From: Escherichia coli
GTDB taxonomy: Bacteria; Pseudomonadota; Gammaproteobacteria; Enterobacterales; Enterobacteriaceae
Direction: 5' to 3' (one strand)
Assembly: GCF_044324785.1 (NCBI RefSeq)
Contig: NZ_CP172127.1
Length of the DNA: 64,000 nt
The translations under genes were made by a program, and so were the position numbers. Below the pieces are notes generated by a model. It ran no database searches, had not been told where the DNA came from, and saw nothing but the letters and a program-made list of their open reading frames with translations. Positions within the stretch are counted from its first letter, which is position 1. Every line of letters starts with the position of its first letter. Of this stretch, positions 1 through 52,752 are shown in pieces.

Positions 1-440
1 AACGGCACGCCGAGCAGCAAGTTGCCGAAGGCAATACCGAAGACTACCGGCGGCACCAGACTGCCGATGACCAGTCCGGCATCCCACATTTTACGCCAGC
101 GTGCATCGGCGATTTTTCCGCGATAATCAAAGGCCAGCGGGCGGAAGAACAGCGAGCACAGCACCAGAATCATCGCCACATAAAAGCCGGAAAACGCCGC
201 TGCATAAACTCTGGGCCAGGCGGCAAATAATGCCCCACCTGCGAGGATCAACCAGACCTGATTGCCTTCCCAGTGCGCACCAACGCTATTAATCACTATC
301 CGGCGTTCATCATCATCACGCGCCACCAGCGGCAGCAAACAGCCAATCCCCATGTCAAATCCGTCGGAGATCATAAAGACCACCAGGATCACGCCAATCA
401 GCAGCCACCAGATGAAGCGCAATGTTTCATAATCAAACAT
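1..440 (-). CDS. appB: Cytochrome bd-II ubiquinol oxidase subunit II, N-terminal part (gene continues beyond window start)
   Basis: Minus-strand ATG at 440 (cat at 438-440) translates [33 protein letters not shown]..., a CydB/AppB-type N-terminus; lies 11 nt downstream of appC stop. Confidence 0.85.
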
Positions 441-451
441 GATTTTCTCCT

Positions 452-1996
452 TTACCCCTGTTGCTGCGTCGGTTGTTCACTCTGCATCGCGCTCGGCCCC
501 AGACGGGCATATTTCTGCATCAGGTAGACTTCGGCGATTAAGAACAGGGTGTAAAGCCCTACGATCATGATCAGTGAGAAAGCCAGTTGTCCTGTGGTTA
601 AGGCGGAGTGCGCGGAGTATGTCGGTAAGATGTCCTGTATCGCCCACGGCTGACGACCAAACTCGGTCATAAACCACCCGGCTTCAATCGCAATCCACGG
701 CAGCGGCAAACTCCAGAGCGCCATTTTCAGCACCCAGCGATGCTGGTCGATTTTGCCACGCAGCGTCTGGACAAGCGCAATCAGCATCACCAGTAGCAGC
801 AGAGAACCACAGCCCACCATGATGCGGAAACTCCAGAATACCGGCGCAACCTGAGGTATCGCGCCACGCATCGCCGCCTGGTACTGTGCAGCTGTGACAT
901 GGTTCATATCCGGCGCATAGCGGGAGAGCAACATGCCGTAACCAAGGTCGCCTTCCAGCTCCCGGAATGCCTGCAACACATGCGGCTCTCGATTGCCTTG
1001 CGATATTTCCTGCATTAACAGCCAGGCCATACGTCCGCGTTGCAAGCGTGGGTAGGTTTCAGCCATCAAATTCTTCAGACCCGGCACGGGTTTATCTAAT
1101 GAGTGAGTGGCGAGGATCCCTAGCAGCGCGGGAATTTTGATGGCAAAGGCGTTACGCTCTTGATCCTGTTCCGGCCAGGCAACCACATGGAACGGTGCAG
1201 GTGCAGGTTCCGTTTGCCACTCCCCTTCCATCGCCGCCAGTTTTACCGGTTGTACTTGCGCGACTTCATACGCCGAACTGTCTCCGAGTTGCAGCGTACC
1301 GATAATCGCCAGAGTACCGAAGACGGAACCGATGGCAAACGAGCGTAATGCAACATCGCGCTCCCGTCCGCGCAGTAAATACCAGGCGCTGATCGCCATA
1401 ATAAACATGGCCCCGGTCACGTAGCCCGCCATTACGGTGTGTACAAATTTCACCTGGCTGACCGGGTTAAAGACCAGCTCGCTGAAGCTGGTCATTTCCA
1501 TGCGCAGGGTGTCGATATCAAAATGCGCACCGGTCGGGTATTGCATCCAACCGTTGGCATTCAATATCCACAATGCAGAGAGATTTGAACCGAACGCCAC
1601 CAGCCACGTCACCAGCAGGTGCTGGTATTTATTCAGCCGTTGCCAGCCGAAGAAGAACAGCCCGACAAAAGTGGATTCGAGGAAGAAGGCCATTAATGCT
1701 TCCATCGCCAGCGGTGCGCCAAAAATATCGCCCACATAGTTGGAATAGAATGACCAGTTAGTACCAAACTGAAACTCCATGGTCAGGCCGGTAGCCACGC
1801 CAAGAGCAAAGTTGATACCGAAGAGCTTACCCCAGAAGCGCGTCATATCGCGGTAGATTGTTTTGCCGGTGACCACGTAAATGGTTTCCATGATAGCCAG
1901 CAAAAAAATCAGCCCCAGGGTAAGGGGTACAAATAAAAAGTGATACAGCGCGGTCAGAGCAAACTGCCAGCGCGATAAATCAATGACATCCCACAT
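452..1996 (-). CDS. appC: Cytochrome bd-II ubiquinol oxidase subunit I
   Basis: Track ORF 452..2002 (GTG-extended) trimmed to ATG at 1996; product [28 protein letters not shown]... 514 aa. Confidence 0.93.
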
Positions 1997-2129
1997 GCGC
2001 ACTCCTGTAGGCGAAGAGAGAAAAATAACCCGTTAATGGTAGATCTCCCTCTTTATCCTGAAACTCTACGACCAGAGGTATTCGCCGATTGCGATATTCA
2101 TAAGCCTGAAAGCGATACTTACCGTCTTT

Positions 2130-2987
2130 TTACGACGGTGCCCCTTCCGCCAGCCACTGACATACCTCACTAAGCCGCTGCGCAGAGTCGACCAAATCTT
2201 CTGGCGCTGCCAGAACCACTTCCGGTATCGGGCAGATTTCATAACTTTCCAGTAACGGGCCTTTTAAGGTGTCCGTACAGCGTAAATGCCAGACATGGCG
2301 TAACCCCGTGGCGTTGATATAGCTCTCGCCATAGCCAATGGTACGAATCTGAATATTTCCCGGCCCACAGAGACGTGAGAGAAAAAGCCGATCAGCCTCG
2401 CTGATGGGTAATTGCGTCAGATTAATGCTGTGCGGCTGCGCGTCGGGGTTACGTACATGCGCCAGTAACTCATGCGCCAACGGTAGGCCATTCATCAGGC
2501 CATCAATGGGCGGCGGTAACAGCGAATCTGTCGGCAAGAGATTTTGCGTTGCCGCCTGCCACAACGCCAGCGGCGCGCAGCCAGCCTCCAGTTTGTCCTC
2601 CAGCAACTTTTCGCCGCGACGTCTGCGCACCCGCCATAATCCGCAGAAGATCGCCTCCTGTATTTCACTTTCACTGTCGTCAGCCTGCTGAATGCGCACT
2701 GACACTTCCCCTTCCCCGAGAAGCGTATTGATAAAGTGACGATCGTCGGCGTTGAGATTTAACAGATCGACTGCCAGCACCTCGCCCAACGGCGGCTGGC
2801 GTTCGCTTAGTTGATGTTGTAACTCGTTTAACAGCGCAATCACCTGCGGGCTGTGAGCACATTGCTCCAGGGCCGCCATACTCGGTTCATCATTCACCTG
2901 ACAGGTGATCGGCAGTGGATTCATGCTGAAACTGTCATCGTTCGGTTGCGTTCCTGGCCCCAGCAAATGGAAAAAAGTTTCGCTCAT
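2130..2987 (-). CDS. hyaF: Hydrogenase-1 operon protein HyaF (maturation/accessory)
   Basis: Track ORF 2130..3047 trimmed to ATG 2987 ([20 protein letters not shown]...), 285 aa; ATGA overlap with hyaE stop. Confidence 0.9.
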
Positions 2988-3382
2988 GAGGCACGCTCCT
3001 GTTGTGGTTCGACAAGCCCACGCATCAGGTTTATCAGTTCCGCCCACGGGTGGATACCATTCAGCACGCCGCGATAATTACCGCTGGTAAATACTAATGT
3101 GGCGGGAAAGCGAAAGACGCCAAAGCGATCGCCGATGGCTTCGCTCTGCTCAAGGTCAGCTATCGCTACCTGCCATGTATAGTCGGGAAACTCGCGCAGT
3201 AATTCGCTAATCATTACCGGATTATCGCTGACCTCTGGCGTACGTTTCGGGTCACTGCTTAATAACACCACGCCGTCTGGCGCTTGCGTAAGCCAGTCGT
3301 CAAGACGGGATTCACTGACCGGCGTCCAGCCGCGCGCCAGCATTCGTTGCCACAACGCATCAAATGGCGTGTCGTTGCTCAT
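2984..3382 (-). CDS. hyaE: Hydrogenase-1 operon protein HyaE (Tat proofreading chaperone-like)
   Basis: Track ORF 132 aa [31 protein letters not shown]...; 4-nt overlaps with hyaD and hyaF. Confidence 0.9.
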
Positions 3383-3966
3383 CTCTGCTCCTCCTGTGTC
3401 ATCCGGTACTGGCGCAAGCGAACGCCTTCGTAATTTTCCATCGACAGACAGTCATAATTGAGACAACGCGATTCATTAGCCGGTTGCGGCACAATTCCCC
3501 ACGCAGCCAGCTGCGCCAGCGCCGCCTGTTCCGCAGCGGGCAGTTGCTCCCGCGCCAGTTCGCTCAGGCTGCCGCCGTAGTCGTCGAGCATTGCGGGTTG
3601 CAGACCGACGAGGGCAATATGTGCTGGCAGATGTCCGCGGATATCTGCCAGCGCCAGCACTTCGGAGAAACTGTTCTGATGCAGGCTCATTTTCTTCGCG
3701 CTGAGATAAGCCGGAATGCGTTCTCCGGCATATGTTCGCAGCGTTCCGGGTTCCAGCCCGTAATCAATGGCATCGAGGATCAACAAGTGACTGGCGCTTT
3801 CGACATACCCCAGCAAGTTCAGTCCCTGAGTACCGCCATCGACAATCTCCACATCCTCGGGCCAGTGGTAATGGGCATACAGCCGTTCCGCCACCCGCAC
3901 GCCGAAGCCTTCATCGGCCCACAGCAGATTGCCCAGCCCCATTACCACCACGCGTTGATCGCTCAT
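3379..3966 (-). CDS. hyaD: Hydrogenase-1 maturation endopeptidase
   Basis: Track ORF 195 aa [29 protein letters not shown]... (HyaD/HybD-family protease). Confidence 0.92.
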
Positions 3967-4670
3967 GAACGCTCCTTGTTACTTATTTTGCCAAATTTGT
4001 GGCTACGGTAGCCGTTGACCATGGTGGAGATCACTGTGTCGTCGGACATGATGTCTTCACGCAGCGCCATGTAGACATGACCGATCACAAACGCGCCAAT
4101 CAGCCACATCCCCAGCCGATGCCAGCTGTGAATGTCCATTGAGTTGCCACCCGTCCAGTAGAAAAATTCCACCACATAACGGAACGGCGCAAAAATAGCG
4201 TACTGGCTGTGTTCGCTGTACAGCGCAAAGCCGGTGATGATCATAAAAACTGACATCAGGAAATAGCCGAACATCGCCGCCTGGGCGATGGGGTTATGGC
4301 CTATATCGGCACTCGGACGTTTTGCCAGAAACAGATACCAGCGGATTTCATACCACACGCCCTGCCACCAGCTTTTACGCCATACCGGCACGATAAACAG
4401 CTCGCGGGAGTATCGATTGCCAACAAAAGCCCAGTAGATCCGCATCAGCAAGACCACGGTAAAAACCATCCCGGCGCTGAAGTGAATTAACCTGATGTAG
4501 CCCATATAGAACAGATACGTCGCCTCGCCGCTGACGGAAGGTAGCGGCTTGCCGATAAAGTAACCGGTGACCATCAACACCGCCATGCATAACACCGTCA
4601 GCCAGTGCCAGATACGCACTGGCGCTTCAAAGACATAGTGGCTGACAACGTTGTCGCTTTTCTGTTGCAT
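3963..4670 (-). CDS. hyaC: Hydrogenase-1 b-type cytochrome subunit
   Basis: Track ORF 235 aa, hydrophobic membrane protein [38 protein letters not shown]... Confidence 0.92.
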
Positions 4671-4688
4671 GATGATTCTCCTTCGCTG

Positions 4689-6482
4689 TTAACGCACCTG
4701 CACGGAGATCAGCTCGCTACCGTCGTCGCCCAGCACGTGTGTTGAACAGGCGAGGCACGGATCAAAGCTGTGCAGAGTACGCAGGATCTCCAGCGGTTGC
4801 TCGGGGATCGCCATTTTGGTGTTCATCAGCGCCGCTTCATAAGCGCCAATCTGCCCTTTGGGATCGCGCGGGCTGGCGTTCCAGGTGGTCGGCACCACGC
4901 ACTGGTAGAGATCAATCTTGCCATCGCGAATGGCGGCCCAGTGGCCTAACGCTCCGCGCGGCGCTTCGGTAAAACCGACACCACGGCACTCTGTCGGCCA
5001 GGTTGTGGGTTCCCATTTTTCCGTGGAGGCGGTGGCAAGATTGCCGTTTTTCAGGTTAGTCATCAGCTTGTTGAAGAAATACTGCAACTTACCTGCGGCC
5101 CACTGTGCTTCGTGTGCGCGGCACAAAATGCGGCCCAATGTTGACTGGATACCGGAAAGCGGCAGGTTCAGCGCCGACATCATGCGATCGACCGACTCAA
5201 CGGTCGCCGCATCGCCTTTGTGATAAGCGATTAACGTGCGTGCCAGCGGCCCCACTTCCATCGCGTTACCGCGCCAGCGTGGCGCTTTGATCCACGAGTA
5301 GCGTTCCTGTTCATTCAGCTGCTGAATGTTGGTATCGCTGCCTTTGACATCGCCGGGGTTGTACCACGGGTCGGTAATGCCATCGAACGGATGACGCCCG
5401 ACCTGATCGTTGGGATAACGATACCAGGCGTGGTCGACAAACTCCTGCACCTGCTGCGGATCAACCAAATCCACTGGCAGCACATTGTTGAAGTCGCCGT
5501 TAATCACCGCGCCGCCAGGCATCAGCAGACTTTTCTCGCCAAAGTCGTTGGCGATATCCGGGAACGCGCCGTAACTGAGAACGCATTTATCCGAAAGGCC
5601 AGTGCCGATTTCGCTCCACGGTTTGTTGAACTGACCGATGGCTAAGGCGTCGGGGATCATCACGTTGTTAATGAAATCCGCCGTGCGGGTGATAATCGAC
5701 TGCACCAGGTTCAGGCGTTCCATATTGACCGCCCCGACCGCGCCGCTTTCGTCAATGTTAATGGCGCAAGGCATCCCACCGACAATCCAGTTTGGATGCG
5801 GGTTTTTACCGCCAAAAACCGCGTGGATTTTGACAATTTCACGCTGGAAATCGAGAGCTTCGAGATAGTGGGCAAAGCCCATCAGATTGGCTTCTGGCGG
5901 CAGTTTGTACTGCGGGTGCCCCCAGTAGCCATTGCGGAAGATCCCCAACTGCCCACCTTCAACGAATTTCTTCAGGCGGTTTTGTACGTCGAAGAAATAG
6001 CCAGGGGATGATTTCGGCCAAGAGGAGAGACTTTGCGCCAGTTCGGAGGTTTTCCGCGGATCGGCTTTCAGCGCATCTAACACATCGATCCAGTCCATCC
6101 CGGCAAGCTGATAGAAGTGCACCAGATGATCGTGGCACCAGAGCGTTGCCAGCATAATGTTGCGGATGATATTGGCGTTGTCCGGCACTTTAATACCGAT
6201 GGCATCTTCGATGGCGTAAACCGAAGCCAGGGCGTGTACGCCAGTACAGACACCGCAGATACGTTCAACGAACGCCCACGCATCGCGCGGGTCGCGCCCT
6301 TGCAGGATGATCTCCAGCCCGCGAAACATGGTGCCGCAGGAGACGGCATTGGTGATCACATTCTGATCGTTAATATTCACTTCGCAGCGCATGTGGCCTT
6401 CGATGCGCGTAATCGGGTCGACCACCAGGCGGCGTCCGGCATTGTTGATGGTGTATCCCTGAGTTTCGTACTGAGTGCTCAT
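4689..6482 (-). CDS. hyaB: [NiFe] hydrogenase-1 large subunit
   Basis: Track ORF 597 aa with N-terminal RICGVC and C-terminal DPCLAC nickel-binding motifs. Confidence 0.95.
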
Positions 6483-7597
6483 GCCTGTTTATCCTCATTG
6501 CCTGGCTGATGTTCGGTTTCTGTAGGTTGCTGGTTATGACGTCTGCGCTGGTCAACGGCGCTGGCAACTGCGTGCACACCAACAGCCGCTGCCACCACGC
6601 CAAGCGCGGTTAAACCGACGGTGTCGGCGGTGGAATGAGTACCCATTTGCGGAATATCGACTACGCGGCTGTAGAACGAACCGCGATCCCAGAAACCATT
6701 TTCCGCGCAGCCCAGGCAGCCGTGACCAGACTGGATTGGGAAAGAAACGCCATCATTCCAGCGGGTGGAGGAACAGGCGTTATAGGTGGTAGGCCCTTTG
6801 CAGCCCATTTTGTACAGGCAGTAACCTTTGCGGGCAGCGTCATCATCCCAACTCTGGACGAACTCTCCGGCGTCGAAGTGAGCGCGGCGATAACATTTAT
6901 CGTGGATACGCTGACCATAAAACATCAGTGGACGGCCCATTCTGTCGACATCTGGCAAGCGATCAAAGGTCACCATGTAAGTAATGATGGCGCTCATCAC
7001 ATCCGGGATCGGCGGGCAGCCAGGTACTTTGATAATAGGTTTGTCGGTGATGACTTTGTCGATAGGCGTTGCCTGCGTCGGATTGGGTCGCGCGGCCTGC
7101 ACGCAGCCCCAGGACGCGCAGGTTCCCCAGGCGATAATCGCGCTGGCTCCGGCAGCGGCACGTTTGAGTTTCTCAATAAACGGTCGACCGCTGCTGATAC
7201 AGAACATCCCCTGCTCGCCCAGCGGCGGATTACCTTCTACTGCGAGGATATATTTGCCATTGTATTGCGTGATGATGTCTTCAAAGACTTCTTCCGCCTG
7301 GGTTCCGGCGGCAGCCATCAAAGTATCGTCGTAATCGAGGGAAATCAGGGAAAGGATGACGTCCTTTGCCAGCGGGTGAGCGGAGCGGATAAAAGATTCG
7401 GTACAGCAGGTGCATTCCAGACCGTGGATCCATACCACCGGAATGCGCGGTTTGTTCTCCAGCGCCCAGGCAATCTTTGGTGCCATTCCCGCGCCTAATC
7501 CCAGCGACGTGGCAGCCAGACTACAATATTTGAGAAAGCTGCGCCGGGTAACGCCCTGACGCCGCATGGCCTGGTAAAATGTTTCCTCGTTATTCAT
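6479..7597 (-). CDS. hyaA: [NiFe] hydrogenase-1 small subunit (Tat-exported)
   Basis: Track ORF 6479..7624 trimmed to ATG 7597 ([29 protein letters not shown], twin-arginine signal); ATGA overlap with hyaB start. Confidence 0.93.
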
Positions 7598-8023
7598 ATC
7601 GCACGTCTCTTCTCCTTGCGACACCGGCAGGACACCGGGCGCTTATGGTCGGCAAGCGACGTCCCTGTAGCAAGGCAAACCATCGCTTCACGTGAGATGC
7701 TGAAAACGAAAGCTCATCCTTCTGCACTGGCGCACGTCGCCAGAAAGTATTGTTAATAAAGCGTAGTGAAACTTTTGCACAAAACAATACAAACTGTATG
7801 GATTTATCTTTTAGCGATAAAAATGGACCTATTTTTCTTTTTGCCGGGCAGTGGGGATGTTTAGCCGGTTGCTAAACGAGTAAAAGAGAAGGAATTCATG
7901 GTGATGAAATGATCAATCTGCTGTTATTTCACGCTATCAATGCACTTTTGGCTGTTTTTCAGGCAAACAAACAAATTAGGGGTTTACACGCCGCATCGGG
8001 ATGTTTATAGTGCGCGTCATTCC

Positions 8024-8111
8024 GGAAGTGTGGCCGAGCGGTTGAAGGCACCGGTCTTGAAAACCGGCGACCCGAAAGGGTTCCAGAGTTCGAATCTCTG
8101 CGCTTCCGCCA
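8024..8111 (+). tRNA. serT: tRNA-Ser (anticodon UGA)
   Basis: 88-nt GGAAGTGTGGCCGAGCGGTTGAAGGCACCGGTCTTGAAAACCGG...CGCTTCCGCCA; 7-bp acceptor stem, long variable arm, anticodon loop CTTGAAA, encoded CCA end. Confidence 0.93.
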
Positions 8112-8121
8112 AATAAGATAA

Positions 8122-8154
8122 GGGGTTAGCTAAATGCTAACCCCTTTTTCTTTT
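8122..8154 (+). terminator. Rho-independent terminator downstream of serT
   Basis: Perfect 9-bp stem GGGGTTAGC/GCTAACCCC with loop TAAAT followed by TTTTTCTTTT. Confidence 0.8.
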
Positions 8155-8317
8155 GCCTGTCGAAATTCTCAGGGCGTTATATTTGCTTAATGACCTGATA
8201 ATCCGTTGTTAAACCTGTTCCAGATCAAATGCGTAAAGATGGGTAAAACTTCTGGGTGCCCTTACGCATTATCATTATGCTGCTTAATTAATTACATCTG
8301 TCATAGAGAGTGACTCA

Positions 8318-8977
8318 ATGGATCGTATTGTTAGTTCTTCACATGACCGTACATCGCTGCTTAGCACCCATAAGGTGCTGCGTAATACCTATTTTCTGCT
8401 GAGCCTGACGCTGGCCTTTTCGGCGATTACCGCAACTGCCAGTACGGTGCTGATGCTGCCATCTCCGGGTCTGATTCTGACGCTGGTGGGTATGTATGGT
8501 TTGATGTTCCTGACCTATAAAACGGCGAATAAGCCGACCGGAATTATCTCCGCATTCGCCTTTACCGGTTTTCTGGGTTATATCCTCGGACCAATTCTGA
8601 ACACCTATCTGTCTGCCGGAATGGGTGACGTAATCGCTATGGCACTGGGCGGAACGGCGTTAGTGTTCTTCTGCTGCTCTGCATATGTGCTGACCACCCG
8701 CAAAGATATGTCGTTCCTCGGCGGTATGCTGATGGCGGGTATTGTGGTGGTGCTGATTGGTATGGTTGCTAATATCTTCCTGCAGCTGCCCGCTCTGCAT
8801 CTGGCGATCAGCGCGGTCTTCATTCTGATCTCCTCTGGCGCTATTTTGTTTGAAACCAGCAACATCATTCATGGCGGTGAAACGAACTATATTCGTGCCA
8901 CGGTTAGCCTGTATGTTTCGCTGTACAACATCTTCGTCAGCCTGCTGAGCATTCTGGGCTTCGCCAGCCGCGATTAA
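8318..8977 (+). CDS. yccA: Inner-membrane protein of the BAX inhibitor-1 (TMBIM) family, modulator of FtsH
   Basis: Track ORF 219 aa [39 protein letters not shown]..., seven hydrophobic segments. Confidence 0.92.
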
Positions 8978-8999
8978 TCTCACCCGCTAACACTGTCAT

Positions 9000-9029
9000 A
9001 GCCTCGCTTTATGCGGGGCTTTGTTTTTT
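9000..9029 (+). terminator. Candidate intrinsic terminator after yccA
   Basis: Stem AGCCTCGC/GCGGGGCT (one G-U wobble) followed by TTGTTTTTT. Confidence 0.6.
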
Positions 9030-9067
9030 GTTACACTGCCGGCAGTCTGATTAAGGTAGTAATAATT

Positions 9068-9397
9068 ATGCTGATCTTCGAAGGTAAAGAGATAGAAACG
9101 GATACCGAAGGCTATCTCAAAGAAAGCAGCCAGTGGAGTGAGCCGCTGGCAGTGGTGATTGCAGAGAACGAAGGGATTTCGCTGTCGCCAGAACACTGGG
9201 AAGTGGTGCGTTTTGTGCGTGATTTCTATCTGGAATTCAATACTTCTCCGGCGATTCGTATGCTGGTAAAAGCGATGGCGAATAAATTTGGCGAAGAAAA
9301 AGGTAACAGCCGCTATTTATACCGACTGTTTCCGAAAGGTCCGGCTAAGCAAGCCACCAAAATTGCTGGCCTGCCAAAACCGGTAAAATGTATTTAA
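9068..9397 (+). CDS. tusE: Sulfurtransferase TusE (2-thiouridine tRNA modification)
   Basis: Track ORF 9011..9397 trimmed to ATG 9068 ([23 protein letters not shown]...), 109 aa, DsrC-like C-terminal ...PKPVKCI. Confidence 0.9.
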
Positions 9398-19514: not shown

Positions 19515-19681
19515 TTGTAAGTTTTCAACTACGTTGTAGACTTTACATCGCCAGGGGTGCTCGGCATAAGCCGAAGATATCGGTAGAGTTAATATTGAGC
19601 AGATCCCCGGTGAAGGATTTAACCGTGTTATCTCGTTGGAGATATTCATGGCGTATTTTGGATGATAACGAGGCGCAAAAA
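19515..19681 (+). promoter_or_regulatory. ompA promoter and long stable 5' UTR
   Basis: TTGTAA (19515-19520) and TAGACT (19537-19542) upstream of GCCAGGGGUGCUCGGCAUAAGCCG..., which I recognise as the start of the ompA leader; about 132-nt UTR to the ATG at 19682. Confidence 0.7.
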
Positions 19682-20722
19682 ATGAAAAAGACAGCTATCG
19701 CGATTGCAGTGGCACTGGCTGGTTTCGCTACCGTAGCGCAGGCCGCTCCGAAAGATAACACCTGGTACACTGGTGCTAAACTGGGCTGGTCCCAGTACCA
19801 TGACACTGGTTTCATCAACAACAATGGTCCGACCCATGAAAACCAACTGGGCGCTGGTGCTTTTGGTGGTTACCAGGTTAACCCGTATGTTGGCTTTGAA
19901 ATGGGTTATGACTGGTTAGGTCGTATGCCATACAAAGGCAGCGTTGAAAACGGTGCATATAAAGCTCAGGGCGTTCAGCTGACCGCTAAACTGGGTTACC
20001 CAATCACTGACGATCTGGACGTATACACTCGTCTGGGTGGTATGGTATGGCGTGCAGACACTAAATCCAACGTTTATGGTAAAAACCATGACACCGGCGT
20101 TTCTCCGGTCTTCGCTGGCGGTGTTGAGTATGCGATCACTCCTGAAATCGCTACCCGTCTGGAATACCAGTGGACCAACAACATCGGTGACGCACACACC
20201 ATCGGTACTCGTCCGGACAACGGCATGCTGAGCCTGGGTGTTTCCTACCGTTTCGGTCAGGGCGAAGCAGCTCCAGTAGTTGCTCCGGCTCCAGCTCCGG
20301 CACCGGAAGTACAGACCAAGCACTTCACTCTGAAGTCTGACGTTCTGTTCACCTTCAACAAAGCAACCCTGAAACCGGAAGGTCAGGCTGCTCTGGATCA
20401 GCTGTACAGCCAGCTGAGCAACCTGGATCCGAAAGACGGTTCCGTAGTTGTTCTGGGTTACACTGACCGCATCGGTTCTGACGCTTACAACCAGGGTCTG
20501 TCCGAGCGCCGTGCTCAGTCTGTTGTTGATTACCTGATCTCCAAAGGTATCCCGGCAGACAAGATCTCCGCACGTGGTATGGGCGAATCCAACCCGGTTA
20601 CTGGCAACACCTGTGACAACGTGAAACAGCGTGCTGCACTGATCGACTGCCTGGCTCCGGATCGTCGCGTAGAGATCGAAGTTAAAGGCATCAAAGACGT
20701 TGTAACTCAGCCGCAGGCTTAA
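19682..20722 (+). CDS. ompA: Outer membrane protein A
   Basis: Track ORF 19595..20722 trimmed to ATG 19682 ([36 protein letters not shown]...), 346 aa with APAPAPAP hinge and OmpA-C domain. Confidence 0.97.
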
Positions 20723-34967: not shown

Positions 34968-35077
34968 GAACTCTCCTGGATTCCCGGTGTGCAAACCGGG
35001 GGCGTATTATGTGCGAGTTCGGACCAAAAGGGAATTGACCTGTGGCAAAAAAAGCGCAAACGTTTTCCGAACCTGTT

Positions 35078-35788
35078 TCAGAGCAGATTTTGCTCCTTCT
35101 TTGCACTCAACCCGCCGTAATCATTTATCGTCCGCCAGGAGACATGACACGGTGCTATTGCCTGACACCAGCTTGTCTGACGCTGGCTTTTAGGTGGCAC
35201 AACTCCCGCATTACTTAACGCTTTACCATTTACGCTCACCTGAATCAGGTTAATGTAGTAAGGCGTTGGGTTAGTGAGTTGTACACCCTGCGAATTCCGT
35301 GTCCAGCGTAATTGTTGATAAGCTTCCAGCGGGTCGCCCGGCAAACCTTCGGGTCGCCAGAACAGTTTAAATACCGAGCGCATCGCCACTTTTACGCTCT
35401 GATTTTCAACTTTGCCGGATGGTACGCTGGCAATGCTTAACTCAAATAGCGTTTCGCGATCCACAGGCAAAATGCCGCTTTCCGTTCTCAGCAAGCGCAA
35501 CGTGCCTGTAGTACCGGGCTTCAGGAGAACAAGTGGTGGAGCGACCAGTAGTGGTGCTGACCCTGTCGATGCTTCGCCCCCGGCCCAACGCGTTGGGCGA
35601 TTGATTTTACTGTTAATAAGCCAGGATTCCTGACTGGTATTAGTCAGTGAAATAGATATCGATTCTCTGTCTGCCGGGAAGATAAATCGCGTTCCGCCAA
35701 CCACCACTCCTGCCTGCAATTTCCCCGCCACCAGCAGCGATAAAACGGCAAAAATCGCGAGCGTCAATCTGTTCCACGTATTAGTCAT
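35078..35788 (-). CDS. ycbF: Periplasmic fimbrial chaperone (PapD-like), second chaperone of the elf cluster
   Basis: Track ORF 35078..35815 trimmed to ATG 35788 (MTNTWNRLTLAIFAVLSLLVAGKLQA...); chaperone-type fold signature ...VFKLFWRPEGL...; start set by N-terminus recall, moderate certainty. Confidence 0.8.
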   Translation of the reverse strand: MTNTWNRLTLAIFAVLSLLVAGKLQAGVVVGGTRFIFPADRESISISLTNTSQESWLINSKINRPTRWAGGEASTGSAPLLVAPPLVLLKPGTTGTLRLLRTESGILPVDRETLFELSIASVPSGKVENQSVKVAMRSVFKLFWRPEGLPGDPLEAYQQLRWTRNSQGVQLTNPTPYYINLIQVSVNGKALSNAGVVPPKSQRQTSWCQAIAPCHVSWRTINDYGGLSAKKEQNLL

Positions 35789-36296
35789 AATGAAGTACAA
35801 ATGTCGCGCTGGCATTCACTTTACCCGACTGCACATCGCTATTAACAGGTCGCAATTGCGCATAAAAAGTTAATGGCACCTTACCGCTATGTAGGCTGTA
35901 GTCTTTACTCGCCTGGTTAAGCGGAATCAATATTTTCGCATCATCCAGAATCGCAATTGCCAGCCCGCTGGCTGCATCCGTACCACTTTCAATGGACAGC
36001 ATTTCGCTCTGCACTCCGTCGGGGGCTCCTGAAAAGGTGACGTCAACCGTGCTGACATCTGTTCCGCAATCCTGCAAATTAATAATGAAAGATTTCTCCG
36101 GGCCAAAATTCCCATTAGAAAAACGTGTCAGCGAGACATCGCCTAACTGCACATTGATTTGCTTGCTATCCTGTGCCAGCACGCATGTATTACGGCGAAA
36201 CGATCCGCTAATGTTAACCGTGCCATCATGGGCAAATAGCTCACAGCTTCCCATTAATCCCAGTAAGCACAGCATCCAGATTATCCGTTTCAACAT
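35781..36296 (-). CDS. ycbV: Fimbrial-like subunit
   Basis: Track ORF 35781..36344 trimmed to ATG 36296 (MLKRIIWMLCLLGLMGSCELFA...), 171 aa; 8-nt overlap with ycbF start. Confidence 0.82.
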   Translation of the reverse strand: MLKRIIWMLCLLGLMGSCELFAHDGTVNISGSFRRNTCVLAQDSKQINVQLGDVSLTRFSNGNFGPEKSFIINLQDCGTDVSTVDVTFSGAPDGVQSEMLSIESGTDAASGLAIAILDDAKILIPLNQASKDYSLHSGKVPLTFYAQLRPVNSDVQSGKVNASATFVLHYD

Positions 36297-36303
36297 CACT
36301 CCT

Positions 36304-36846
36304 TCACTGGTAAACCAGATCAAAATAGAGAACCGCCGTCGCATTACCGCCCGTTGCGCCCGCCTTTGTGGACTTATAGCGGAGTTGATATTTGAGTGTG
36401 TTATCCCCCGCTTTTAAGGGCGTAAGAGGCTGGACCTGATTGAGCGGGATTTCTTGCTGACTTTGCGCATCAAGAATTTGCACGGCAATCCCCGTTGCCA
36501 TACCACCGCCTCCGCCTGTGTCAGTTAGTTTGAGCAGTGTCGGCACAAGGGTGTCAGCCTCACCGCTAAAAAGGACGTCCGCGCCAGTAATACCAGCGGC
36601 ACAACCGGTGATATCGATATTCAAATCAGCAGCAGTGCTTACGGTATTCGCGGCCTGAAAATCACTGATATTAAAATCACCAATATGAATATTTTGTAAT
36701 GCACTTTTGGTGGCGACATCACAGCCCTGATCGACCACATTCCCATAAATATGCATACTAACTTGTTCAGGCCCAGCCATCCCGACATGGATGTTAAGAT
36801 TGCTAAAGAACAAGATAACGCACTGAAATATCGTTTTTTTCTTCAT
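36304..36846 (-). CDS. ycbU: Fimbrial-like subunit
   Basis: Track ORF 180 aa MKKKTIFQCVILFFSNLNIHVGMA... with signal peptide and pilin-like C-terminus. Confidence 0.82.
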   Translation of the reverse strand: MKKKTIFQCVILFFSNLNIHVGMAGPEQVSMHIYGNVVDQGCDVATKSALQNIHIGDFNISDFQAANTVSTAADLNIDITGCAAGITGADVLFSGEADTLVPTLLKLTDTGGGGGMATGIAVQILDAQSQQEIPLNQVQPLTPLKAGDNTLKYQLRYKSTKAGATGGNATAVLYFDLVYQ

Positions 36847-36857
36847 ACGTTCACGCG

Positions 36858-40519
<3,662 letters not shown>

Positions 40520-40543
40520 CTCGCTCTCTTAACTGAAGACGGC

Positions 40544-41245
40544 TTACGATTTACAGTTGAGTTGCGGCGTTTCCGCCCCGTAGTCATTGATGGTTCGGTA
40601 CGTTACGCTACTGTTTTGAGCACCCTTTGGCAGAGGGAATTGGTATTTATCAAAGGGGGAAATCATTTGATTTTTAACTACTTTTCCACCTATTTTCAGG
40701 TCTGTCAGGGTAATGAAATAAGGTGTTGGGTTACTGACCGTAACCATGTCAGCTGACGAAGTGCAACGCAGTTTCGCCGGAGCCTCGGCTAAGGGATACG
40801 CTAAACCTTTTGGTCGCCAGAAAAGTTTGATGACGCTTTGTGTGGCAATCTTCAGGGTATTGCCTTCTTCCCGCTTCGTTGTTGAAGGGACTGCCCGTAC
40901 GCTGGTGAAGAAAAGAGTTTCTCTGTCTTTCGCCAACGGCGCACCAATATACATAATGCGTAACAGATTCTCGTTTGCCGGATTCAGCACAAATAGCGGT
41001 GGTGTAATAATAAAGTCCGCTGACTTTTTATTATCTGGGGTCATCACCCATGACTGAATAAGATAAGGAACATCCGGACTGGTGTTACGTACACCCAGTG
41101 AAATTTGCTCTTCACCTTCCGAATAAACAAGACGTGTTGCTGCAAGTCCGACCCCACCTTTACCTGCCGCCCATGTGAACGAACAGCTGAGTAATATTGC
41201 CGTTAAACTTACGGTCACAATTCCCTTTGTTATGCAAGTTTTCAT
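40544..41245 (-). CDS. elfD: Periplasmic fimbrial chaperone
   Basis: Track ORF 233 aa MKTCITKGIVTVSLTAILLSCSFTWA... with ...VIKLFWRPKGL... chaperone signature. Confidence 0.9.
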   Translation of the reverse strand: MKTCITKGIVTVSLTAILLSCSFTWAAGKGGVGLAATRLVYSEGEEQISLGVRNTSPDVPYLIQSWVMTPDNKKSADFIITPPLFVLNPANENLLRIMYIGAPLAKDRETLFFTSVRAVPSTTKREEGNTLKIATQSVIKLFWRPKGLAYPLAEAPAKLRCTSSADMVTVSNPTPYFITLTDLKIGGKVVKNQMISPFDKYQFPLPKGAQNSSVTYRTINDYGAETPQLNCKS

Positions 41246-41327
41246 AAATAGTCACTCTTAAAAAATATGGATATCCCCTCCAGAACACTGGAGGGGTACT
41301 AATTAATAAAACAATTAATGAGTTCTA

Positions 41328-41867
41328 TTAATAATAGTTAATATGGAAATTTGTTACCGCATTCACATTACCAGAAGTCGCTTTCCCCGTAGCGATATAA
41401 TCAACTTTAAAAGTCAACGTCTGATCTCCATCTTGCAACAAAATGTTCCCGGTTTCTGTGTCTGGCGTGATGGCCGTTGTACCATCATTCATATACATTT
41501 GCAGGGCCACGTTTGTAGCAGCATCAGATGAGGCCTGGTTAGCAAACGCTGTAATCTGAGTAGTATCCGCAGTGCCATTAAAGGTGAACGTTGCATTTTT
41601 TGTTACGGTAGTATCACAATCTTTTAATTCAATTGGCACATCAGTTTGCACGCCAGAAACCTGACCATTGGTTTGCAACTTCGTGGCACTAACATCTGGC
41701 AAAGTCACCACGGAATCTTTCGTCGCAGCGACCAGAGTACAAGCTGGAGCAATAACTTTACCATTAAATGTTACTGAGCCATCCGTGATAGCATTATCAT
41801 CAGCAGCCATAACGCTGGACGTTGCACATACCACAGTTATAAACGCCGTCAATACACTTTTTTTCAT
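41328..41867 (-). CDS. elfA: Major fimbrial subunit (E. coli laminin-binding fimbriae)
   Basis: Track ORF 41328..41876 trimmed to ATG 41867 (MKKSVLTAFITVVCATSSVMAADDNAITDGSVTFNGKV...), 179 aa. Confidence 0.88.
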   Translation of the reverse strand: MKKSVLTAFITVVCATSSVMAADDNAITDGSVTFNGKVIAPACTLVAATKDSVVTLPDVSATKLQTNGQVSGVQTDVPIELKDCDTTVTKNATFTFNGTADTTQITAFANQASSDAATNVALQMYMNDGTTAITPDTETGNILLQDGDQTLTFKVDYIATGKATSGNVNAVTNFHINYY

Positions 41868-42222
41868 CGTTATCATCCTGATCTCTTCGTAAATATGATA
41901 ATGCCTTTAAATGACATTAGACTTAATAATAACAATAATTGTCCGCCATTTAAATCAAGCATACTAAATCCAATAAGTGACAAATCTTTAATTTATAGAT
42001 TTCATGAATATTTAAATATTAACTGAACGAGTAATTCATTGATTCAACATCTAATGACTATCCAATAAATAAATATGCGTGATATATAAAGCCCTTTCTT
42101 TAGTTTATTTTCAGAAAAAGATACACAAAATTTATATTTGGCATTTTCTTGTCTCTCCGACAGACTGACCGAATTGTTATCAATGTTAACAAAACAAGAA
42201 CAATTGGTTATAAGGAGAGAGT
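41868..42222. promoter_or_regulatory. AT-rich divergent control region between elfA and ssuE
   Basis: 355 bp, visibly AT-rich with long A/T tracts (e.g. ATTTAAATATTAACTGAACGAGTAATTCATTGATTCAACATC); must hold the elf promoter (leftward) and the sulfur-starvation ssu promoter (rightward). Confidence 0.65.
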
Positions 42223-42798
42223 ATGCGTGTCATCACCCTGGCGGGTAGTCCTCGCTTTCCTTCTCGCTCCAGCTCCTTGCTGGAATATGCGCGGGAAAAA
42301 CTGAATGGCCTGGATGTAGAGGTTTATCACTGGAATCTGCAAAACTTCGCCCCGGAAGATCTACTTTATGCTCGTTTCGATAGTCCGGCACTCAAGACCT
42401 TCACCGAACAGCTGCAACAGGCTGATGGACTGATAGTCGCTACACCTGTGTATAAAGCCGCCTATTCCGGCGCGCTGAAAACCCTGCTCGACCTGCTGCC
42501 AGAGCGCGCTTTGCAAGGCAAAGTGGTGCTGCCGCTGGCGACAGGCGGCACGGTGGCTCATCTTTTGGCGGTCGATTATGCCCTTAAGCCAGTTTTAAGT
42601 GCGCTGAAAGCCCAGGAGATCCTGCACGGCGTGTTTGCCGATGACTCACAAGTAATTGATTACCACCACAAACCCCAGTTCACGCCAAATCTGCAAACCC
42701 GTCTTGATACCGCGCTGGAAACTTTCTGGCAGGCATTGCACCGTCGGGATGTTCAGGTTCCTGACCTTCTGTCTCTGCGAGGTAATGCCCATGCGTAA
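42223..42798 (+). CDS. ssuE: NADPH-dependent FMN reductase
   Basis: Track ORF 191 aa MRVITLAGSPRFPSRSSSLLEYAREKL... Confidence 0.93.
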   Translation: MRVITLAGSPRFPSRSSSLLEYAREKLNGLDVEVYHWNLQNFAPEDLLYARFDSPALKTFTEQLQQADGLIVATPVYKAAYSGALKTLLDLLPERALQGKVVLPLATGGTVAHLLAVDYALKPVLSALKAQEILHGVFADDSQVIDYHHKPQFTPNLQTRLDTALETFWQALHRRDVQVPDLLSLRGNAHA

Positions 42799-43750
42799 GA
42801 TCATTAAACTGGCGCTGGCGGGCTTACTTAGCGTCTCTACACTTGCTGTTGCCGCGGAGTCTTCGCCAGAGGCGTTACGGATTGGCTATCAGAAAAGCAA
42901 CATCAGTTCGGTGCTGGCGAAAAATTACCAAATGCTGGAAAAACGCTATCCGCAAACAAAAATCTTCTGGGTGGAGTTCCCGGCTGGCCCGCAGATGCTG
43001 GAGGCACTGAACGTCGGTAGTATCGATCTGGGTAGTACGGGAGATATTCCGCCAATCTTTGCTCAGGCCGCCGGGGCTGATTTGCTGTATGTGGGTGTCG
43101 AGCCACCGAAGCCAAAAGCCGAAGTGATTCTGGTGGCAGAAAATAGTCCGATCAAAACCGTAGCCGATCTTAAAGGTCACAAAGTTGCCTTTCAGAAAGG
43201 TTCCAGTTCACACAACCTTTTACTGCGTGCACTGCGTCAGGCCGGACTTAAGTTTACCGATATACAACCCACTTACCTGACACCCGCTGATGCCCGCGCC
43301 GCGTTCCAGCAAGGTAACGTTGACGCCTGGGCTATCTGGGATCCCTACTACTCCGCTGCATTATTACAGGGCGGCGTGCGGGTGCTGAAAGACGGCACCG
43401 ATCTCAATCAAACCGGATCGTTTTATCTGGCTGCCCGTCCGTATGCAGAAAAAAACGGCGCATTTATTCAGGGTGTACTGGCAACCTTTAGTGAGGCCGA
43501 TGCGTTAACCCGCAGCCAGCGCGAGCAAAGCATCGCCTTATTGGCAAAAACGATGGGCTTACCGGCCCCGGTGATTGCCTCGTATCTGGATCATCGCCCT
43601 CCCACCACCATCAAACCGGTTAACGCCGAAGTTGCCGCCTTACAGCAGCAAACGGCAGATCTGTTTTATGAAAACCGTCTGGTGCCGAAAAAAGTCGATA
43701 TTCGCCAGCGTATCTGGCAGCCCACTCAACTGGAAGGAAAACAATTATGA
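42791..43750 (+). CDS. ssuA: Aliphatic sulfonate ABC transporter periplasmic binding protein
   Basis: Track ORF 42656..43750 trimmed to ATG 42791 ([34 protein letters not shown]...), 319 aa; 8-nt overlap with ssuE. Confidence 0.92.
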
Positions 43751-52150: not shown

Positions 52151-52164
52151 TTTAGCGTCTTCAA

Positions 52165-52191
52165 GAGCCAGCACCCGCTGGCTCTTTTTTT
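52165..52191 (+). terminator. Intrinsic terminator after asnS
   Basis: GAGCCAGC/GCTGGCTC perfect 8-bp stem, loop ACCC, then TTTTTTT. Confidence 0.85.
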
Positions 52192-52542
52192 ATCCTTTCT
52201 GTCAAGTTATCTGTTTGTTAAGTCAAGCAATCTATTTGCAACCCCGCCATAACGATCATCCTGTTACGGAATATTACACTGCAATATTTTCGCACAAAAA
52301 ATAATCCGCATTCTTATTGCGGATTAGTTTTTTCTTAGCTGATAGCACAATTTTCATACTATCTTTTGGCGTTCTGGATGTCTGAACGAGGATTTAGTGC
52401 CAGGTCGATAAAGTTTCCATCAGAAACAAAATTTCCGTTTAGTTAATTTAAATATAAGGAAATCATATAAATAGATAAATATTGCTGTAAATATCATCAC
52501 GCTTCTATGGAAATATGACGGTGTTCACAAAGTTCCTTAAAT

Positions 52543-52636
52543 TTTACTTTTGGTTACATATTTTTTCTTTTTGAAACCAAATCTTTATCTTTGTAGCACT
52601 TTCACGGTAGCGAAACGTTAGTTTGAATGGAAAGAT
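52543..52636 (+). promoter_or_regulatory. ompF promoter with tandem OmpR-binding sites F1-F3
   Basis: TTTACTTTTGGTTACATATTT / TTTTCTTTTTGAAACCAAATC / TTTATCTTTGTAGCACTTTC tandem 20-bp sites followed by AAAGAT -10 candidate; about 110-nt leader to the ATG. Confidence 0.75.
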
Positions 52637-52752
52637 GCCTGCAGACACATAAAGACACCAAACTCTCATCAATAGTTCCGTAAATTTTTATTGACAGAAC
52701 TTATTGACGGCAGTGGCAGGTGTCATAAAAAAAACCATGAGGGTAATAAATA

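Follow-up and report, generated by a model that had tools for sequence, protein, structure and literature searches.

Base composition, protein binding and origin of the divergent elfA-ssuE control region of Escherichia coli

How can a cryptic fimbrial operon and a sulfonate-utilisation operon be served by one short and extremely AT-rich region, and where does such a region come from? The question is raised by the spacer between elfA and ssuE, which was analysed here within a window of 64 kb (64,000 nucleotides of the Escherichia coli contig NZ_CP172127.1; all positions are counted from its first letter). The answer argued for below, which we consider very probable, is that two back-to-back operons share the spacer as their control region, that H-NS occupies it, and that it combines DNA of two origins.

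The locus and its published protein binding

The gene order in the window is appB ... pyrD, ycbF-ycbV-ycbU-elfG-elfC-elfD-elfA, ssuEADCB, pepN ... mukF. The gene elfA (ycbQ) encodes the major fimbrial subunit and is the first gene of elfADCG-ycbUVF. It occupies 41328-41867 on the reverse strand as a clean open reading frame in agreement with the RefSeq annotation, and a Shine-Dalgarno sequence AGGA is found 9-12 nt upstream of its ATG at 41867. The first gene of ssuEADCB, ssuE, occupies 42223-42798 on the forward strand, likewise as an open reading frame annotated in RefSeq. Between the two genes lies a divergent intergenic region of 355 bp (41868-42222) with an AT content of 72.4%. A first-pass annotation, made from the sequence alone, had given both the extent of this spacer and the names of the flanking genes, and the open reading frames and RefSeq agree with it exactly.

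The spacer corresponds to positions 997513-997867 of K-12 (NC_000913.3) and is identical to that of MG1655 at 353 of 355 positions, with substitutions at 42142 and 42195. Because of this near identity, experiments carried out in K-12 apply to the spacer of the window as well. Many E. coli genomes carry a spacer which is 100% identical to the one studied here.

The elfA gene itself is far more variable than its surroundings and has a second allele class with about 92% identity; a query of 1471 bp covering elfA-ssuE was matched at 99% identity or more by only one of 5415 genomes. Its AT content (57.6%) is also the highest in the elf operon. In E. coli O121:H19 16-9255 (locus L086, 1-118) the annotation gives elfD as a pseudogene with a frameshift, and the elf operon is therefore decaying in some lineages. 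An IS1A element lies within the elfA-ssuE spacer of E. coli PEC389 (locus L088, 882-1579), where it splits the AT-rich region.

Two published papers bear directly on the spacer. Panyukov & Ozoline (2013; PMC3661553) include it as 'ssuE(-)/elfA(+) 996773_328' among 78 promoter islands of K-12, where it is marked 'A', which means H-NS-bound in all ChIP studies compared (Grainger, Kahramanoglou and Oshima), and is also flagged for an association with predicted foreign genes. This island, given in their Table 1 in U00096.2 coordinates, maps to about 41857-42185 of the window by way of an unconfirmed genome-version offset of 777/778, which leaves an uncertainty of +/-1 nt. Curran et al. (2017; PMC5797941) flag both ssuEADCB and elfADCG-ycbUVF as 'G, K, O' for H-NS ChIP. 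The same authors amplified exactly this 355-bp ssuE-elfA fragment and showed by EMSA that SlyA binds it, the apparent Kd being about 50-100 nM. Overproduction of SlyA raised ssuEADCB 3.6-fold and elfADCG-ycbUVF 2.7-fold, which they attribute to antagonism of H-NS. Throughout this work, H-NS occupancy refers to the ChIP summaries in these two papers and not to raw profiles; the genes ssuE and elfA are not mentioned by name in the main text of Grainger 2006.

The first-pass annotation had taken the composition as a sign of H-NS silencing at a fimbrial operon that is cryptic in the laboratory. This interpretation is supported, and it is already published for what is a documented K-12 locus: H-NS is bound here in the Grainger, Kahramanoglou and Oshima ChIP sets according to both papers, and the elf operon is called cryptic and poorly expressed in PMC5797941. 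It had further been stated that two very differently regulated operons share one region. They do share it, but the difference in regulation was overstated, as both operons are flagged for H-NS and both are raised by SlyA overproduction.

Base composition, predicted shape and coding content

Gene coordinates, taken from the annotation of strain CFSAN061763, were re-anchored to clean open reading frames of the window before the intergenic regions were ranked. Small indels shift the coordinates relative to CFSAN061763 below ~21 kb and above ~52.7 kb, and the ompA reading frame of the window (about 19658-20722) is 12 nt longer than in the CFSAN061763 annotation when the nearest candidate start codon is used.

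The AT content of the spacer compares with 47.7% in coding sequence and 57.6 +/- 4.8% in the other 30 intergenic regions of the 64 kb, which makes it the first of 31 in rank (z = 3.1). Segments of 355 nt reaching 72.4% AT make up 0.06% of the window, and every one of them overlaps the spacer. TpA steps occur at 11.0 per 100 nt, 2.5 times the value of 4.3 found window-wide. The AT-richness is clearly beyond chance, and the spacer stands out under windowed counting just as the first-pass annotation had claimed. Second among the long AT-rich intergenic regions is the asnS-ompF spacer (52151-52752, 602 bp, 65.4% AT), which contains four H-NS consensus matches with 1-2 mismatches plus one straddling the asnS edge.

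One might take such a composition as the ordinary state of intergenic DNA, or as the result of mutational drift, without any special regulatory meaning. The intergenic regions of the window as a whole do exceed coding sequence in AT content (59.5% versus 47.7%), but the spacer is an outlier within this very class, and the ancestral pyrD-ssuE spacer described below has just 57.6% AT. Moreover, the spacer is at least 95% identical to that of the window in about 3,770 of 4,041 genomes with its island part, and protein-binding data have been published for the fragment (PMC3661553, PMC5797941). We regard this explanation as scarcely credible; the composition ranking together with the published binding of H-NS and SlyA effectively refutes it. 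Hardly any more credit can be given to an unannotated small gene or small RNA within the spacer, which would explain its length and conservation. Open reading frames of 30-43 amino acids are present at 41895-42026 on the forward strand and at 41873-41983 and 42100-42192 on the reverse strand, but short reading frames through AT-rich sequence are expected by chance, and RefSeq annotates nothing in the spacer in any genome inspected. Promoter islands in general yield short abortive RNAs (PMC3661553), but an Rfam scan of 41000-43000 gave zero matches to any family even at E <= 1, and the conserved ssuE leader (see below) is without a consensus RNA structure.

A further possibility is that the spacer is an intrinsically curved element, in which helically phased A-tracts act as a structural promoter element or as a signal for H-NS. 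Phased A/T tracts and a curved region had indeed been noted in the first-pass annotation. AnTm tracts with a length of 4 nt or more number 22 in the spacer, little above the 18.8 +/- 2.5 of dinucleotide shuffles; most of them are only 4 nt long and their spacing is irregular. The Fourier power of AA/TT at periods of 10-11.5 bp is not above that of dinucleotide shuffles (p = 0.32), a result which gives no support to helical phasing, and that part of the description is rejected. Curvature was predicted with the Bolshoy-Trifonov wedge model, for which a synthetic phased A-tract served as a sanity check. In this model a single peak of 21.9 degrees per turn at ~42122 lies above the 99th percentile, close to where A5, A4T3 and AT4 tracts cluster (42107-42147), and the end-to-end/contour ratio of the spacer, 0.705, falls within the lowest 2.5% of windows. 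The mean predicted curvature of 8.1 degrees per turn, on the other hand, is only within the top 14%. For the elfA-proximal 220 bp the model predicts fairly straight DNA, with a curvature no higher than the average of the window, and this part carries many TpA steps, a feature of flexible and not of curved DNA. The description as 'curved' is borne out only in part by the model. On the model, the region is best described as extremely AT-rich DNA with one predicted bend toward the ssuE end, not as a phased and globally curved element, and we consider the latter unlikely.

Four of the 13 sigma-70-like matches in the surrounding 20 kb fall within the 355 bp, which fits the label of a promoter island. 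Dinucleotide shuffles of the spacer itself contain 2.8 +/- 1.8 such matches; since the observed number is no higher than this, the density of promoter-like sites follows from composition.

Candidate elements on the two sides of the spacer

On the elfA side, a consensus scan gave a candidate promoter at 41926-41954 on the reverse strand, consisting of a -35 element TTTAAA (41954-41949), a 17-nt spacer and a TG-extended -10 element TATTAT (41931-41926). Only one Cappable-seq start, a weak one, is found on the elfA strand in the spacer (U00096.2 997039, window position 41918/41919, score 4.7; supplement of PMC4782308), and it sits 6-7 nt past the predicted -10. A SlyA site, TCAGGATGATAA, is predicted in the table of PMC5797941 at 41870-41881 on the reverse strand, with its centre 8 bp from elfA on the upstream side.

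The E. coli H-NS binding-site consensus is given in PMC3661553 as TCGATAAATT. The sequence TCTATAAATT at 41990-41999 on the reverse strand agrees with it at 9 of 10 positions and is one of five matches with one mismatch in the 64 kb; another match, with two mismatches (8/10), is located at 42033-42042. Window-wide, 72 such matches were counted where 59.6 +/- 7.5 were expected, which is no statistical enrichment, and the near-consensus site at 41990-41999 is suggestive only. An exact match, AATCAATGAATTA, to the IHF consensus WATCAANNNNTTR is found at 42032-42044 on the reverse strand (4 matches in 64 kb, 2.45 expected). For the promoter region of ssu, van der Ploeg reportedly described binding of IHF in 1999.

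The first-pass annotation had reasoned that the sulfate-starvation promoter of ssuEADCB must be in the same spacer. It must indeed lie there, and the comparison with other genera puts its core in the last 60-140 bp. A block at 42155-42222 on the forward strand, found by this comparison to be common to elf-less E. coli and other genera, contains the -10 element, the leader (TTGTTATCAATGTTA ... GTTATAAGGAG) and the ribosome-binding site. The -10 element of the window, CAGACT (42161-42166), aligns with a CAnACT/TG-n element that 18 genomes of other genera have in common ahead of ssuE. Based on this alignment, we infer a core promoter at 42137-42166 on the forward strand, with TTTGGC (42137-42142) as -35 element and a spacer of 18 nt, from which transcription would be expected to start near 42173. 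A promoter-like sequence TTCAGA-17-TATATT at 42110-42138 on the forward strand is a better-looking alternative to the favoured TTTGGC-18-CAGACT. According to secondary literature that refers to van der Ploeg 1999 and Bykowski 2002, transcription of ssuEADCB depends on Cbl under sulfate starvation.

The ssuE leader (42172-42218) is strikingly conserved, with TTGTTATCAATGTTA retained throughout Enterobacteriaceae and GTTATAAGGAG as far as Serratia and Erwinia, and an inverted repeat AATTGTT/AACAATT is found within it. Across 28 Enterobacterales the consensus structure of the leader has zero predicted pairs, and an RNA element is therefore not supported. The leader could be a protein-binding site, and the repeat looks like conserved DNA or plain sequence.

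The elf insertion and the ancestral pyrD-ssuE spacer

The elf operon is missing, with pyrD directly upstream of ssuE, in 1353 of 5426 complete E. coli genomes (~25%), and the spacer's island part occurs in 4013-4041 of the 5426. With the elf-less genome TUM13773 as reference both junctions were mapped: positions 35068-42154 of the window are replaced by 69 bp in elf-less genomes. The insertion, on the reverse strand, is 7.0-7.1 kb long and comprises ycbF to elfA together with the elfA-proximal 218 bp of the spacer (35068-42085, with the right edge up to 42154). The pyrD-ssuE spacer of TUM13773 measures 236 bp and has an AT content of 57.6%.

The left junction lies directly after GCGCAAACGTTTTC (35054-35067), upstream of pyrD. 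This sequence is conserved across genera as GCAAnCGTTT and matches the PurR operator consensus. A GC-rich hairpin, TTCCCGGTGTGCAAACCGGGGG, is located in the pyrD leader/upstream region at 34981-35002 and is kept in elf-less E. coli. No direct repeat was noticed on reading the two junction sequences, and sensitive blastn detected no paralogue of the AT-rich block in elf-less genomes, for example upstream of auf. On the right, just the last 68 bp before ssuE are clearly common to the spacers with and without elf. The right edge would lie between 42085 and 42154 and remains fuzzy, because the in-register similarity of this part to the ancestral sequence is modest and a free local alignment is not significant.

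Which of the two arrangements came first was addressed with an outgroup survey, in which one genome per species was scanned for SsuE, giving roughly 60 loci from Enterobacterales, in most of which pyrD adjoins ssuE. In Citrobacter, Enterobacter, Klebsiella, Leclercia, Lelliottia, Kosakonia, Buttiauxella, Cedecea, Pluralibacter, Siccibacter, Erwinia and Serratia the two genes are as a rule neighbours separated by ~240 bp, and they are also adjacent in two divergent 'E. coli' species representatives. Four blocks are conserved in these pyrD-ssuE spacers: TTATGC-N8-GCA, GATAAATCATTTAG, CTCTGnCAnACT and the leader TTGTTATCAATGTTA ... GTTATAAGGAG. Elf-less E. coli retains all four, whereas the window retains only the -10 element and the leader. 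Because of the adjacency in the outgroups and the retention of all four blocks, the elf-less arrangement is, judged by this comparison, the primitive one, and a deletion in the elf-carrying allele could not have produced it. The elf operon with 218-287 bp of the spacer is a presence/absence difference within E. coli and is absent from nearly all outgroup genera, which links the AT-rich region to horizontally acquired DNA. This analysis of the insertion and of the ancestral promoter goes beyond the published descriptions of the locus that were consulted, by a modest amount of new detail.

The 69 positions between the possible right edges (42086-42154, forward strand) appear, from their in-register similarity, to be a diverged and AT-enriched counterpart of the ancestral region upstream of ssuE, and they hold the predicted curvature peak. 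Aligned in register with the ancestral 69 bp, 30 of 69 positions are identical against 19.9 +/- 3.6 in shuffles (p = 0.0035); free local alignment of the same two sequences gives no significant similarity (p = 0.41). The AT content is 75.4% compared with 60.9% in the ancestral version. Among elf-carrying E. coli this stretch is almost invariant, even where the elfA-proximal half differs at about 35 sites (one strain). We would interpret it as the strongly diverged activator region of ssuE: the Cbl activator site and the -35 element are probably contained in 42086-42154, with the Cbl site roughly at 42086-42135.

The reading of the spacer as a shared control region of composite origin can then be put together as follows. 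The elfA-proximal 220-290 bp would have arrived with the elf operon, as part of an insert of 7.0-7.1 kb that entered the pyrD-ssuE spacer in its ancestral form, and would have brought a weak sigma-70 promoter for elfA with a start near 41918, the candidate SlyA site, the IHF match and the near-consensus H-NS match. The extreme AT content and the many TpA steps would make this part a substrate for H-NS, which would coat the island end and silence the weak elfA promoter; H-NS is known for silencing the AT-rich promoters to which it binds. SlyA binds the fragment, and its overproduction raises both operons, according to Curran et al. by antagonising H-NS. The ssuE-proximal 70-140 bp would be a remnant of the ancestral ssuE promoter, in which the -10 element, leader and ribosome-binding site have been conserved; upstream of the -10, the region where Cbl would be expected to bind appears heavily diverged and AT-enriched. 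Under sulfate starvation Cbl would activate the ssuE promoter from a position presumably within the last 140 bp. Since the ancestral spacer is of ordinary composition, the influence of H-NS and SlyA on ssuEADCB may be a by-product of the elf insertion.

A stronger version of this last point is that the insertion rewired ssuEADCB, which would have lost the ancestral -35-proximal motif, become AT-enriched upstream and come under H-NS/SlyA control, while elf-less lineages would keep an unsilenced ancestral promoter. We put this forward tentatively, as possible but rather doubtful. Phylogroups A, B1, D and E are reported to carry elf and B2 to be elf-less; Ycb fimbriae are described as missing from phylogroup B2 (PMC3559732), and the absence of ycb in B2 has been interpreted as loss (PMC6896753). 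If the rewiring were true, B2 would show the primitive state, or one that was re-imported, and not the outcome of simple deletion, and E. coli lineages would show systematic differences in the expression of sulfonate utilisation, so that a lineage-specific difference in ssu regulation is predicted between elf-carrying and elf-less (B2-type) E. coli. The locus would then be a clean and datable case of an acquired, silenced fimbrial operon that reshaped a neighbouring housekeeping promoter, possibly imposing nucleoid-protein control on it.

Comparison with known systems and related loci

The closest known system is the K-12 ssuE/elfA promoter island itself (PMC3661553), one and the same locus, where promoter-like sites are dense and an association with predicted foreign genes is noted; nothing material differs apart from the two substitutions in the spacer and a different elfA allele. 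SlyA/H-NS antagonism has been described at hlyE-C0299 and slyA-ydhIJK (PMC5797941), which are likewise divergent promoters, and SlyA binding is common to these and to the 355-bp fragment. Compared with them, the SlyA site TCAGGATGATAA is predicted here, and displacement of H-NS at elfA-ssuE is presumed.

On the fimbrial side, the cryptic chaperone-usher operons sfm, yad and yeh are, like elf, H-NS-associated, poorly expressed in the laboratory and responsive to SlyA. H-NS repression of cryptic fimbrial operons was reportedly described by Korea et al. in 2010. AT-rich promoter islands are also found upstream of these operons (yadN/folK in the table and folD-sfmA in the text of PMC3661553). In contrast to sfm, yad and yeh, the silenced promoter of elf diverges from a core metabolic operon, and the insertion changed that operon's own promoter.

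On the ssu side, the comparison is with the Cbl/CysB-dependent sulfate-starvation promoters of tauABCD and ssuEADCB. The latter is a named Cbl target, and its -10 element and leader are conserved across Enterobacterales. Relative to the ancestral ssuE promoter, elf-carrying E. coli lacks the -35-proximal motif GATAAATCATTT and has 75% instead of 61% AT upstream. A CTTTCYTTAG-like element was recognised by eye upstream of both tauA of K-12 and ssuE of the window. The yaiS-tauA spacer of K-12 (locus L085, 318-932) is a long AT-rich region upstream of tauABCD, the other Cbl-dependent sulfonate operon, and the K-12 island yaiS/tauA 383994_309 is likewise H-NS-bound (PMC3661553).

In Pseudocitrobacter (loci L015 and L020, about 1-4000) an operon resembling elfC/elfD/elfA is found directly upstream of ssuE, with 55-69% amino-acid identity. 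The spacer between its elfA-like gene and ssuE is a different AT-rich sequence of 471 bp in which more of the ancestral ssuE promoter is kept; it was considered as an orthologue of the AT-rich block and rejected, as it gave no convincing alignment with the E. coli spacer. In this genus pepN follows directly after ssuE, and ssuADCB is missing. No match to ssuA was found downstream of ssuE in six loci of the survey (L021, L031, L042, L047, L056 and L060, from Kluyvera, Phytobacter and others); pepN follows ssuE directly in four of them, and L047 and L056 have a gap of ~1.8 kb. The pattern suggests that the genes for the transporter and the monooxygenase were lost repeatedly, with ssuE kept.
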